Source of the DNA: Escherichia coli O127:H6 str. E2348/69
GTDB taxonomy: Bacteria; Pseudomonadota; Gammaproteobacteria; Enterobacterales; Enterobacteriaceae
Length of the DNA: 64,000 nt
Assembly: GCF_000026545.1 (NCBI RefSeq)
Contig: NC_011601.1
Strand: one strand, 5' to 3'
Both the position numbers and the translations under genes were made by a program. The notes beneath the pieces are model-generated. The model saw only the letters and a program-made list of their open reading frames with translations, did no database searches and was not told the origin of the DNA. This document shows, one piece after another, positions 729 through 5,814 of the stretch (position 1 is its first letter; the number at the start of each line of letters is the position of its first letter).

Positions 729-1436
729 ATGGATTTGAACAAATTCGATGAGCCATTCAGCCCTGAAGATATAGAATGGAGAATACAGCAAAGCGGTAAA
801 ACACGCGATGGCAAGGTGTGGGCTATGGTGCTGGCTTATGTCACGAACAGGGCAATCATGAAACGCCTTGACGATGTTTGCGGCAAAGCAGGATGGCGCA
901 ATGAATACCGAGATATTCCCAACAACGGAGGCGTTGAATGCGGCATATCAATCAGGATTGATTCCGAATGGGTAACCAAATGGGATGCTGCTGAAAACAC
1001 GCAGGTAGAAGCCGTAAAAGGTGGTCGTTCCGGTGCAATGAAGCGCGCTGCCGTTCAGTGGGGAATCGGTCGGTATCTGTATAACCTTGAGGAAGGTTTC
1101 GCACAAACATCTCTCGATAAAAAGCAGGGATGGCACAGGGCAAAACTCAAGGATGGAACAGGATTTTACTGGCTCCCTCCATCGCTGCCGGGATGGGCAA
1201 TCCCAGCATCAGATAACAAACCATCACCAGAAAATACCAACCAGACATCTCCATCGGTTGACTGCGAACAAATCCTGAAAGACTTCAGCGATTATGCATC
1301 AACAGAAACTGACAAGAAAAAACTCATCGAGCGTTATCAGCGTGACTGGCAATTAATGGCTGGCAACGAGGAGGCACAGGCTAAATGCGTTCAGGTAATG
1401 AACATCAGAGTTAACGAACTAAAACAGGCGGCATAA
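729..1436 (+). CDS. Rad52/Sak-like single-strand annealing protein (putative)
   Basis: 235 aa; motif AMKRAAVQWGIGRYLY resembles the Rad52 N-domain signature; sits upstream of ssb in a phage recombination module; GAGG RBS. Confidence 0.5.
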   Translation: MDLNKFDEPFSPEDIEWRIQQSGKTRDGKVWAMVLAYVTNRAIMKRLDDVCGKAGWRNEYRDIPNNGGVECGISIRIDSEWVTKWDAAENTQVEAVKGGRSGAMKRAAVQWGIGRYLYNLEEGFAQTSLDKKQGWHRAKLKDGTGFYWLPPSLPGWAIPASDNKPSPENTNQTSPSVDCEQILKDFSDYASTETDKKKLIERYQRDWQLMAGNEEAQAKCVQVMNIRVNELKQAA

Positions 1437-1904
1437 ATGTCTCACTTGGACGGAATTATTAAAAGATTCGAGTCCAGCTACAAAGTTAATGAAACAACAG
1501 GTTGCTGGGAGTCTACCTATTCAAAAAACAAAGGAGGATACACAAAATTTGTAGCCTTTGGCGTAACAATGCTTTCTCATCGGGTTGCTTTTGAGCTTTA
1601 TCACTCCCCCATTCCATCTGGGAAGATGGTTTGCCACAAATGCGATAACCAATGCTGCGTTAATCCTGAACATCTCTTTTTAGGTAGCGCGCAAGAAAAC
1701 ATGGACGACAAGATAGCAAAAGGAAGGCATCGTGGAGCCAAGAAAGGTCATGCTCATCATGGTGCAAAATTAACAGAGTGGCAGGTTATAGAAATTAGGA
1801 AAAGACTCTCTGAAAAAGAGAGTCAGTACAAGATAGCAAAAGACATGGGTGTATCTCAATCAATTATAAGCAACATAAAAACTGGCAAGAGGTGGAGCAA
1901 ATGA
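1437..1904 (+). CDS. HNH endonuclease with C-terminal HTH
   Basis: Motif [23 protein letters not shown] (HNH_3-type); start abuts the stop of the upstream gene; stop overlaps ssb start. Confidence 0.7.
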
Positions 1905-2407
1905 GTTCTCGCGGGATAAATAAGGTGATTATCCTTGGTCGGGTAGGACAAGACCCGGAAGTTCGATACTCACCATCAGGAACAGCGTTCGCTAACCTGA
2001 CAATAGCCACGTCAGAACAATGGCGAGATAAAAATACTGGCGAGCAAAAGGAATTGACTGAATGGCATCGTGTTGCTGTATCCGGGAAACTGGCTGAGGT
2101 CGTGGGGCAGTATGTGAAAAAAGGTGATCAGATTTATTTCGAGGGAATGCTGAGAACCAGAAAGTGGAAAGACCAGTCAGGGCAAGACCGTTACACAACC
2201 GAGGTTCATGTCGGAATTAATGGCGTGATGCAAATGCTTGGCGGCATTGGCGACAGCAAACAACAAGCAGCCAGCAGGCAATCACAGAAGCCACAGCAGC
2301 AATCATCACCAGCACAACACAACGAACCTCCGATGGATTTTGACGACGATATACCCTTTGCACCAGTAACTCTCCCCTTCCCTCGTCACGCTATTCACGC
2401 AATTTAA
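1901..2407 (+). CDS. ssb: Single-stranded DNA-binding protein (prophage SSB) with 15-residue extension after DDDIPF
   Basis: N-terminus [25 protein letters not shown]-fold core, Q/P-rich linker and DFDDDIPF motif; ATG 1901 with AGGTGGAG RBS (the ORF track starts at GTG 1892). Confidence 0.85.
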
Positions 2408-2420
2408 TCAGGAGAAAATC

Positions 2421-2714
2421 ATGCCAGCGCCTCTGTATGGTGCGGATGACCCGCGCCGCTGTTCCGGCAATTCCGTATCGGAGGTGCTGGATAAATTCAG
2501 AAAAAACTACGATCGAATAATGTCTCTACCGCAGGAAACGAAAGAGGAAAAGGAATTTCGCCACTGTATATGGCTTGCAGAGAAAGAAGAACGCGAGCGA
2601 ATTTACCAGACATCAATCCGACCATTCCGCAAAGCCACATATACCCACTTCCCTGAAATTGACCCGCGCCTGCGTAATTACCGCTCACGTTATGGCGCTA
2701 TCAGTAATGACTGA
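2421..2714 (+). CDS. Hypothetical phage protein (97 aa)
   Basis: ORF with AGGAGA RBS directly after ssb. Confidence 0.45.
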
Positions 2715-2724
2715 GGAATTTACC

Positions 2725-2892
2725 ATGAGAGGACTTGCATACAATCCCGGCATTCTTCCGGCAGAAATGATTATTCGCCAACGCGTAAAGCCAATGCCAT
2801 CGAGAGAGGAATTGCTTAAGAGAAATTCTTCTCCGTCAGTGAATCAAAACAAATATCTGAATGCGATGTGGCGCAAAGGAGGCAACCAGTGA
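2725..2892 (+). CDS. Small hypothetical phage protein (55 aa)
   Basis: ATG 2725 with GAGGAA RBS; the track's longer 2575 start overlaps the previous gene. Confidence 0.35.
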
Positions 2893-3158
2893 GTGAGTCA
2901 AAATGCCAAATTAATGGCAACAAGATAGAACCGTGCGCGGCGTTGGCAAAATCTCTCGAATATGGAAATCCAACATTCAAGAGTAAAGGCATATTTATCC
3001 CGGAGCGTGTGAACATAAACACCGGCGAGTCATGCATAGATATTGCTCAAATTCACTCGGGGAAATATATCGGTCGTGGCGTTGCAATGTGCTTTTGCCC
3101 GTTCTGTGGTGAAAGTTTGAAAACGTGGGAAGCGGAGGCAGCCAGTGAGCAAAATTGA
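2890..3158 (+). CDS. Hypothetical phage protein with C-terminal CPFC motif
   Basis: GTG 2890 preceded by AGGAGG; start overlaps the upstream stop. Confidence 0.4.
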
Positions 3159-5541: not shown

Positions 5542-5742
5542 ATGCAACACGAATTACAGCCTGATTCACTGGTTGATTTGAAATTCATCATGGCCGATAC
5601 TGGCTTCGGTAAAACCTTCATCTATGACCGGATTAAGTCCGGCGACCTGCCAAAAGCCAAAGTTATCCACGGGCGAGCAAGATGGTTATATCGTGACCAT
5701 TGTGAATTCAAAAATAAGCTCTTAAGCCGCGCCAATGGGTAA
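5542..5742 (+). CDS. torI: Prophage excisionase / recombination directionality factor TorI
   Basis: 66 aa translation recognised as TorI (MQHELQPDSLVDLKFIMADTGFGKTFIYDRIKSGDLPKA...); lies next to the att core. Confidence 0.9.
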   Translation: MQHELQPDSLVDLKFIMADTGFGKTFIYDRIKSGDLPKAKVIHGRARWLYRDHCEFKNKLLSRANG

Positions 5743-5814
5743 AATAGCGGGTAAAATATTTCTCACATCTAAAAAACTCCATTCCAATCAATCCCCTGCC
5801 GCTTCAAGTAGATG

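Follow-up and report, generated by a model that had tools for sequence, protein, structure and literature searches.

A conserved peptide tail follows the acidic tip of a prophage single-stranded DNA-binding protein in Escherichia coli

Partners of bacterial single-stranded DNA-binding proteins (SSBs) recognise the C-terminal tip of SSB through a hydrophobic pocket, which takes up the terminal phenylalanine, and a basic lip to which the alpha-carboxyl group of that residue is anchored, the latter contact being among the most important of the interaction (PMC10164576). In DnaG, residue R452 makes the alpha-carboxyl contact in recognition of the tip (PMC5872125). Here we describe an ssb gene in a lambdoid prophage of Escherichia coli O127:H6 str. 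E2348/69, the product of which continues for 15 residues past this phenylalanine. The gene lies in a stretch of 64,000 nucleotides (nt) of contig NC_011601.1 that was analysed as a whole and is referred to below as the window. The window SSB shares its OB fold, a Q/P/G-rich disordered linker and an identical tip with E. coli SSB and with the DDDIPF-ending SSBs of phages Sf6 and ES18 (‘SSB-1’). Unlike in E. coli SSB, however, the alpha-carboxyl group is carried by Ile168 and not by the tip residue Phe153.

Two described systems are close to this situation. In phage HK620, the six C-terminal residues of the SSB (HhaK, or ‘SSB-2’), NDYPPF, are needed to recruit and stimulate the annealase Sak4 (PMC5928155). 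HhaK, like the window protein, is a recombination-module SSB with a specialised C-terminus, and it shows that phage SSB tails can be retargeted. It is, however, no homologue of bacterial SSB, and it still carries its Phe-ending motif at the terminus, whereas the window SSB keeps a host-type tip that is capped; moreover, the window-type tail is tied to no single annealase family. The annealases RecT and Red-beta depend on the last 7 residues of host SSB (bioRxiv 10.1101/2020.04.14.041095), so that here, too, the extreme C-terminus of SSB serves as a modular specificity determinant, but the tips involved are terminal host tips and no extended tip was studied. The genetic setting of the window SSB corresponds to that of the HK75-type module, which, as described by Casjens and colleagues, contains Abc2, SSB-1 and an annealase but lacks a nuclease (PMC12315714). 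The window SSB occupies the same module position as the lambdoid ‘SSB-1’, and a C-terminal SSB extension is not mentioned in that description of the module.

An internal tip and a conserved tail

The ssb gene and its parts were delimited as follows (aa, amino acids; pLDDT, predicted local distance difference test; pS and pN, proportions of synonymous and non-synonymous differences).

1901-2407, plus strand: ssb, 168 aa and stop (ATG at 1901, TAA at 2405-2407; Pfam, TIGR00621, RefSeq, AlphaFold2)
1916-2212, plus strand: OB-fold domain binding single-stranded DNA (ssDNA), aa 6-104 (Pfam PF00436; AlphaFold2 strands and helix, pLDDT 88-92)
2237-2326, plus strand: Q/P/S-rich intrinsically disordered linker, about aa 113-142 (composition; pLDDT below 50 from residue 116; pN 0.575)
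2327-2359, plus strand: acidic tip, aa 143-153, internal and not C-terminal (identical to the E. coli SSB tip; pN 0.13)
2360-2404, plus strand: 15-residue tail, aa 154-168 (family consensus; pS 0.80, pN 0.35; predicted disordered; outside curated SSB models)
2360-2362, plus strand: GCA codon of Ala154, a recurrent mosaic breakpoint and the insertion point of an HNH gene (allele comparison)
2405-2407, plus strand: TAA stop codon of ssb (direct sequence reading)
2410-2414, plus strand: AGGAG, ribosome-binding site of the next gene (direct sequence reading)

Pfam model PF00436 matches residues 6-104 (E = 2e-36), the protein reaches 166 bits with TIGR00621 (cut-off 54), and an AlphaFold2 monomer model based on a 42-sequence alignment gives the OB fold a pLDDT of about 90. 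As in bacterial-type SSBs, a D-F-D-D-D-I-P-F tip follows a disordered linker (aa 113-153), and the tip (aa 143-153) is that of E. coli SSB (residues 164-178 in 1eqq), where it closes PDB chains 1eqq and 4mz9. What differs is its position: 15 residues lie beyond Phe153, and the models that reach the C-terminus stop at aa 153, the end of TIGR00621 coinciding with the Phe of IPF. The window protein is a bacterial-type SSB by fold and motifs, with one feature of the docking tip, its terminal position, excepted. The reading frame, Pfam and TIGR00621 bear out the anatomy proposed by the initial annotation of this DNA, which listed the SSB N-terminus, the OB fold, the Q/P-rich linker, DFDDDIPF, 15 extra residues and the stop; the interval it highlighted, 2342-2407, comprises DDDIPF, the tail and the stop codon.

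An open run of this length is unsurprising by itself, as the chance of meeting 15 sense codons past a lost stop is about 0.49, from (61/64)^15. The deciding question is therefore whether the extension is conserved. Alignment with phage and plasmid SSBs, set beforehand as a check, showed the extension to be nearly uniform among close homologues: the 15-aa tail was found in about 110 of the 120 best database homologues (7 of the 120 finish at IPF), and it is present in IncN plasmids as well. The 168-aa protein occurs at 98.8% identity in phages HK75, mEp235 and mEpX2, and a 91% identical version, tail included, in Salmonella phages epsilon34, g341c and NM-3. SSBs that are 58-69% identical bear the same tail, as in HZ41, CP-1639 and ECP1, or a diverged one, examples of which are APIGLMHPTHAIFSI in Hafnia phage Pocitis76 and ATIGLQYGKSRIYAL in phage BUCT618. 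The best database homologues belong to Klebsiella, Citrobacter, Enterobacter, Salmonella, Kluyvera, Pluralibacter and Phytobacter, and the diverged tail is also found on SSBs of Hafnia, Proteus and Xenorhabdus elements. Among 5,426 complete E. coli genomes, 296 contain a contiguous tip and tail.

Conjugative plasmids of the IncN group, such as pTR4, encode a tailed ssb in the leading region beside antirestriction genes. The gene lies at 2005-2538 of the pTR4 locus (L130) and at 2501-3031 of a further IncN locus (L131), and its neighbours encode a TrfB-like regulator, a SprT-family metalloprotease, ArdA and ArdR-type antirestriction proteins and a DinQ-like toxin.

Selection was assessed in a codon alignment of 70 distinct tailed genes, from which a diverse subset (n = 14) was used for pS and pN. 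The four regions of the gene gave the following values.

Tail: pS 0.80 (saturated), pN 0.35
OB fold: pS 0.76, pN 0.49
Linker: pS 0.79, pN 0.575 (highest of the four regions)
Tip: pS 0.97, pN 0.13 (most conserved)

Purifying selection on the tail is at least as strong as on the OB fold. Comparison of the IncN and window tails leads to the same result: 13 of 15 residues match at a third-codon identity of 0.36 (0.42 in the OB domain). Since the residues match while third-codon identity is no higher than in the OB domain, it is the peptide that is kept by purifying selection. A role of the 45 nt at the DNA or RNA level was considered and rejected, as no promoter or terminator matches were found within the segment, its RNA fold is unremarkable (z-score +1.2) and third-codon positions vary freely. 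We likewise rejected programmed frameshifting at CCC TTT G, since the heptamer is out of frame and not conserved.

A portable cassette and the HNH gene at its junction

The family consensus reads DDDIPF-[AS]-P-[IV]-[GT]-L-x-[YFH]-x-x-x-phi-[ILV]-[HYN]-x-[ILVM]-COOH (phi, hydrophobic residue), and that derived from the tail alone [AS]P[VI][TG]L[PQM][FYH]xxxx[ILV]xx[ILVM]. The tail always comes immediately after ...DDIPF, and within it conservation is strongest in the N-terminal half (A-P-phi-G-L-x-Y). Its length and stop position are tightly kept at 14-15 aa, the 14-aa variant being APIGLQYPALLNCM, with occasional variants one residue longer.

Tip and tail together were found on proteins of phrog_44, which include canonical SSBs and a short divergent SSB type, on phrog_743 SSBs, and on members of phrog_4477 (a 393-aa family) and phrog_2544 (a 362-aa family). 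Carriers in phrog_4477 include proteins of two virulent Vequintavirinae, Klebsiella phage BIS47 and Salmonella phage PVP-SE1 (gp39). Searched against 1.84 billion representative proteins, a profile of the C-terminal 30 residues gave 49 matches in proteins of up to 480 aa, and all of these except two outliers lie at the C-terminus or within about 6 residues of it. These matches point to a portable cassette of tip and tail that is carried by at least four unrelated N-terminal families. The cassette is characteristic of ssDNA-binding proteins of mobile elements, and the 45 nt at 2360-2404 encode a genuine selected peptide.

The tail is outside the curated models (phrog profiles, Pfam and TIGR00621). 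The profiles phrog_4477 and phrog_2544, and also phrog_18154 and phrog_7364, which match the C-terminus only, all end at IPF. A profile search of PDB returned canonical tips only and no solved structure with the tail, and no description of it was found in the openly searchable literature, subscription-only papers being outside that scope.

Two side observations concern the carriers. In rV5-like E. coli phages, phrog_4477 homologues align to aa 324 only and are annotated as two open reading frames (ORFs). A metagenomic protein of 575 aa, P0162, consists of eight tandem units with HAIPFATISLHHSTVSG and accounts for 8 profile matches; the unit resembles IPF-A-x-I-x-L, and the protein is probably a spurious low-complexity or repeat ORF.

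We also scanned viral contigs for FDDDIPF followed by a codon not starting with T, with no preset tail. The scan revealed two more recurrent tail families, xPLHHLAGA (9 aa; for example in loci L043, L112 and L146) and xxPYRGxRxLL[IV] (12 aa; for example xxPYRGxRxLLI in L144, L170 and L176). Among tails, Pro at +2 is frequent and most finish with a non-polar residue. Because other recurrent tail families also follow FDDDIPF, extended tips are general among ssDNA-binding proteins of mobile elements and not peculiar to this prophage. A 5-aa family of conserved extensions after FDDDIPF in phage SSB-like proteins, APEWR and APEVR, was seen for example in L027 and L137, and most extensions have Pro at +2 or +3. 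Bas52_0087, the phage protein that triggers the DRT10 defence system, is described as SSB-like, with two OB folds and FDDDIPF in its C-terminal region (bioRxiv 10.64898/2026.04.29.721553).

The junction of tip and tail, which reads GACGACGATATACCCTTTGCACCAGTAACTC in the intact allele, is a site of recurrent rearrangement. In about 108 further E. coli genomes the match begins at window position 2362/2363 and covers the tail codons alone. In two Sf6-type prophages (L003 and L004), ssb ends in ...DDSDIPF-TAG and is followed by a 159-aa HNH ORF, the 3′ end of which is made up of 14 former tail codons and the old stop, identical to the window at 45 of 45 nt. In both prophages and in phage Huey the Ala154 codon is replaced by a stop and an HNH ORF that rejoins at CCAGTAACT. 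Compared with tailed alleles (phage HZ41; L005), L004 is about 99% identical up to codon 145 and then identical from CCAGTAACT, with an insert of 447 nt; the last 27 nt of ssb in the HNH-bearing allele differ at many synonymous sites and gain one Ser codon. Huey has a window-type ssb with a recoded tip (NFDDEIPF-stop), a variant HNH gene, the same 3′ junction and then abc2. Its HNH protein has a different N-terminal half and the same C-terminal ~45 aa as the Sf6 gp26-type. A recoded tip with no HNH gene was found in CP-1639, which fits either a resistant allele or an allele after HNH loss.

The Sf6 gp26-type ORF (2567-3046 in L004, the same position in L003, and 1978-2445 in L213) is unannotated in many RefSeq genomes of E. 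coli. It lies between ssb and an exonuclease or abc2 gene and has no stop codon of its own.

Homologues of the HNH protein do not share the tail. Its match to phrog_2340 (E = 2.5e-47) ends at aa 143 of 159. Full coverage of the 159 aa was seen in only 7 near-identical matches (at least 95%), the other listed homologues reaching about aa 134-151. The intron-encoded homologue I-KsaII of Staphylococcus phages has no tail, and the HNH protein of Pectobacterium phage DU_PP_IV (51% identity) ends in ..NNDPVY with its own stop and no tail. The DU_PP_IV gene (L132, 1-1626) starts directly after a gene ending in ..DVDFDLDIPF-stop. These arrangements suggest that the Sf6-type HNH family repeatedly targets tip-coding DNA.

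As expected of a homing endonuclease gene, the insert is polymorphic for presence and absence at one precise site and is flanked by a recoded target. These features, together with the repeated proximity to ssb or IPF-encoding genes, are shared with free-standing phage HNH genes (Sf6 gp26/phrog_2340 and the relatives of I-KsaII). Unlike usual homing genes, however, the HNH gene at this junction is missing a stop codon and terminates in the tail codons of its host gene. We interpret it as a secondary insertion of a putative homing endonuclease that targets the conserved tip-coding DNA. The tail itself is ancestral to ssb, because HNH homologues elsewhere do not share it. In phages of the Sf6, ES18 and Huey type, insertion of the HNH gene, which reads in frame into the old tail codons, recreates a terminal IPF. 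The tail is not essential for phage growth, since the phages in which it is split off (Sf6, ES18 and Huey) are viable.

A different rearrangement was observed in a prophage of E. coli ABWA45 (L002, 546-3068), where a dGTPase gene (‘anti-phage deoxyguanosine triphosphatase’) and an AbrB/MazE-family gene replace the annealase gene and ssb. Only ...CCTTTTGCA and the 45-nt tail remnant are left upstream of abc2, and the breakpoint is about 8 nt from the junction. This looks like a swap of defence cargo into the recombination module.

Prophage setting of the tailed gene

The gene is located in the early-left operon of a complete-looking lambdoid prophage, in the order cIII, kil, annealase, HNH, ssb and abc2. 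Its neighbours in the recombination module are the following.

729-1436, plus strand: Rad52/Sak-type single-strand annealing protein, first gene of the recombination module (phrog_1097, E = 1e-129; RefSeq Rad52/Rad22 family)
1437-1916, plus strand: insert made up of a free-standing HNH homing-endonuclease gene (ORF 1437-1904) and recoded ssb codons 1-5 (phrog_59, phrog_1872, phrog_6254; HK75 alignment)
2421-2714, plus strand: abc2, P22-type anti-RecBCD, last gene of the HK75-type module (phrog_656, E = 3e-55; RefSeq phage anti-RecBCD protein)

Alignment with HK75, in which the annealase stop directly abuts the ssb ATG, showed that identity with the window resumes at 1917. The start of ssb is ATGAGTTCTCGCGGGATA in the window and ATGGCAAGCAGAGGCGTA in HK75, changing MASRGV of HK75 into MSSRGI. 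The insert at 1437-1916 is missing from HK75 and from most E. coli relatives, and E. coli matches begin at window position 1917. This upstream HNH gene (phrog_59/1872/6254 type) is unrelated to the one at the junction of tip and tail, so that ssb is bracketed by two alternative homing sites. A PADLOC search gave no match for the SSB, Abc2 or the annealase.

Only some 6 kb of the prophage falls within the window, the rest of which is chromosomal and includes the csc sucrose genes. The excisionase-like gene torI, at about 5545-5745, places a prophage end inside the window; intS and the tRNA-Arg attachment site are about 40 kb off at the opposite prophage end, as in KplE1 (NZ_CP059840.2 1593253-1594646, L212). 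Two chromosomal tRNA clusters, unrelated to the tail, are found at 49099-49289 (two tRNA-Ala(GGC), minus strand) and at 51988-52385 (three tRNA-Val(UAC) and a tRNA-Lys(UUU), plus strand).

Possible roles of the capped tip

The AlphaFold2 monomer model assigns residues 116-161 a pLDDT below 50, and the final block (161-168) one of about 49. The tail is predicted to be disordered and to have the character of a short linear motif. Folding back of the tail onto its own OB domain is not supported by this monomer model, contacts with other subunits or partners being outside its scope.

We propose, with a probability of roughly 0.4, that the tail acts as a specificity switch: the cap would insulate the SSB from carboxylate-dependent host partners, and tip and tail together would form a composite docking peptide for a conserved, probably host, factor. 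Since Phe153 is internal, it could not offer its carboxylate, and canonical docking, e.g. of ExoI, RecQ, RecO, PriA, chi, DnaG and RecG, would be lost or weakened, so that the SSB of the element would be uncoupled, at least in part, from the host hub. The tip is under the strongest constraint of the protein and is therefore presumably still used. The tail has hydrophobic and basic residues and a non-polar C-terminus; with an extended phi-G-L-x-Y segment and a turn that Pro would induce at +2, it could act with the still-conserved tip as one docking peptide. Its partner would be conserved and most probably host-encoded, and the set of proteins at the ssDNA of the element would be altered.

The initial annotation had suggested a phage partner recruited through the new tail. 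All-against-all clustering of ORFs from 26 loci with distinct tails revealed no gene that co-occurs with the tail, the largest cluster outside the cassette being present in 7 of the 26. A partner encoded next to the gene was rejected, as only cassette proteins are common across these loci. Linkage to abc2 was rejected as well: the following gene may be abc2, a gene for a DnaQ-like exonuclease or another. The tail accompanies a Rad52-like annealase, Erf or, in IncN plasmids, no annealase, and occurs with or without abc2. Because the tail has no co-occurring phage gene and is also present in IncN plasmids, a phage-encoded partner is unlikely. An SSB that coats ssDNA without recruiting host factors, also put forward by that annotation, and one that recruits a different partner through the tail would each be compatible with the evidence.

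Several points weigh against a specificity switch. A pure cap would let the tip decay, yet the tip is the most conserved segment, and composite or conditional use of it must be assumed. Phages with a tail split by an HNH gene are viable, so any benefit must be conditional. Finally, the near-fixed length and non-polar end of the tail suit recognition of a C-terminus, of the kind expected for a degradation tag, no less well than they suit docking.

The main rival explanation, which we regard as unlikely, builds on this last point: the tail would be a C-terminal degradation or instability tag that sends the stable SSB tetramer to ClpXP, ClpAP, FtsH or Lon, possibly with APIGLxY as an upstream enhancer, making the SSB transient after plasmid entry, in early infection or upon leaky expression in a lysogen. 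Cytoplasmic proteins are destabilised by non-polar C-terminal pentapeptides, ClpX recognises C-terminal signals such as the ssrA tag (..YALAA) and the MuA tail (..RRKKAI), and many early proteins of lambda (O, N, cII and Xis) are deliberately unstable. Like these degrons, the tail is short, disordered, C-terminal and non-polar at its end; the endings ..RHAIHAI and ..IYAL resemble the ssrA and MuA signals. The window tail, exposed in the AlphaFold2 model, ends in ..AIHAI, and a non-polar ending is shared by most tail families, unrelated though they otherwise are (...AIHAI, ...FIHCI, ...LLNCM, ...HLAGA, ...RSLLI, ...AWAVL). The tight maintenance of tail length and stop position agrees with a tag. 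A simple tag, however, would not need the N-terminal half (A-P-phi-G-L-x-Y), which is the best conserved, and a generic one would not require the obligatory direct fusion to the tip, so that the tail differs from known degrons in both respects. Continued strong selection on the internal tip and the existence of some variants with one extra C-terminal residue also argue against a tag.

Far less probable is a second docking motif for a host replication factor, such as the beta clamp, that would recruit clamp or polymerase via the hexapeptide PVTLPF or PIGLQY. P-[VI]-[TG]-L-x-[FY] fits positions 2-6 of the clamp motif Q-phi-x-[LM]-x-[FL], and the cassette is found in IncN leading regions and lambdoid phages, that is, on elements relying on the host for replication. 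Known clamp-binding motifs lie in disordered termini with acidic flanks, a setting like that of the tail, and their Gln is important but not essential, whereas position 6 is restrictive (PMC11139829). At positions 2, 4 and 6 the window tail (V, L and F) agrees with the motif, but tails of subfamilies that have Tyr, His or Glu at position 6 depart from it, and His or Glu occupies this position in whole subfamilies (APIGLQEGRxFLHMI, APIGLMHP..). Gln at position 1 is absent from all tails, which have Pro there, or Thr in BUCT618. Besides, phi-x-L-x-aromatic is common by chance, and the conserved C-terminal half of the tail would be left unexplained. Even less credible is that the tail is a fusion scar with no SSB function, formed when an in-frame deletion joined the 3′ end of a former HNH gene to ssb. 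It is true that 14 tail codons close the HNH ORF in L003, L004 and Huey with complete identity to the window. Yet HNH homologues elsewhere (I-KsaII, phrog_2340 and DU_PP_IV) have no tail, diverged tails are present on Hafnia, Proteus, Xenorhabdus, IncN and Vequintavirinae proteins with no HNH gene nearby, and the tail is under purifying selection within SSBs; the recoded tip of HNH-bearing alleles is typical of a homing insertion with co-converted flanks. As for a stop codon lost by recent mutation, or an error made in sequencing or assembling this genome, both raised by the initial annotation, only the canonical protein ending at IPF with nothing further speaks for them. The identical sequence is found in independent complete genomes and phage isolates, and the tail is conserved across genera despite saturated synonymous sites. 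Both are effectively ruled out by the age and wide distribution of the tail and by the purifying selection that acts on it.

More broadly, the sequences tentatively suggest that mobile elements of Gammaproteobacteria carry an undescribed class of capped SSB tips (14-15-aa AP(I/V)GLxY...I, 9-aa xPLHHLAGA and 12-aa xxPYRGxRxLL(I/V)) that would reprogram the SSB interactome, the families being different solutions to conflict between host and element. If this is true, capped tips could keep out nucleases and helicases of the host (for example ExoI, RecQ and RecO), could bind one host factor with extra affinity, or could be decoys or inhibitors of tip-binding proteins or immune sensors.

Annotation pipelines label tailed proteins simply as ‘single-stranded DNA-binding protein’, and the HNH genes that split the cassette are often unannotated. 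Culturable tailed phages (HK75, mEp235 and epsilon34) and natural tail-less counterparts (Sf6, ES18 and Huey) exist, which makes the question directly testable. It bears on phage recombination and recombineering, through the compatibility of annealase and SSB, on the establishment of conjugative plasmids, through their leading-region SSBs, and on defence systems able to detect phage SSBs or SSB-like proteins. A terminal Phe with a free carboxylate is the supposed universal docking site of the genome-maintenance hub and a drug target, and capped SSBs contradict this textbook generalisation. A large conserved group of phage and plasmid SSBs buries the terminal Phe and represents a natural experiment in hub rewiring, which predicts SSBs that coat ssDNA yet would engage a different set of partners.

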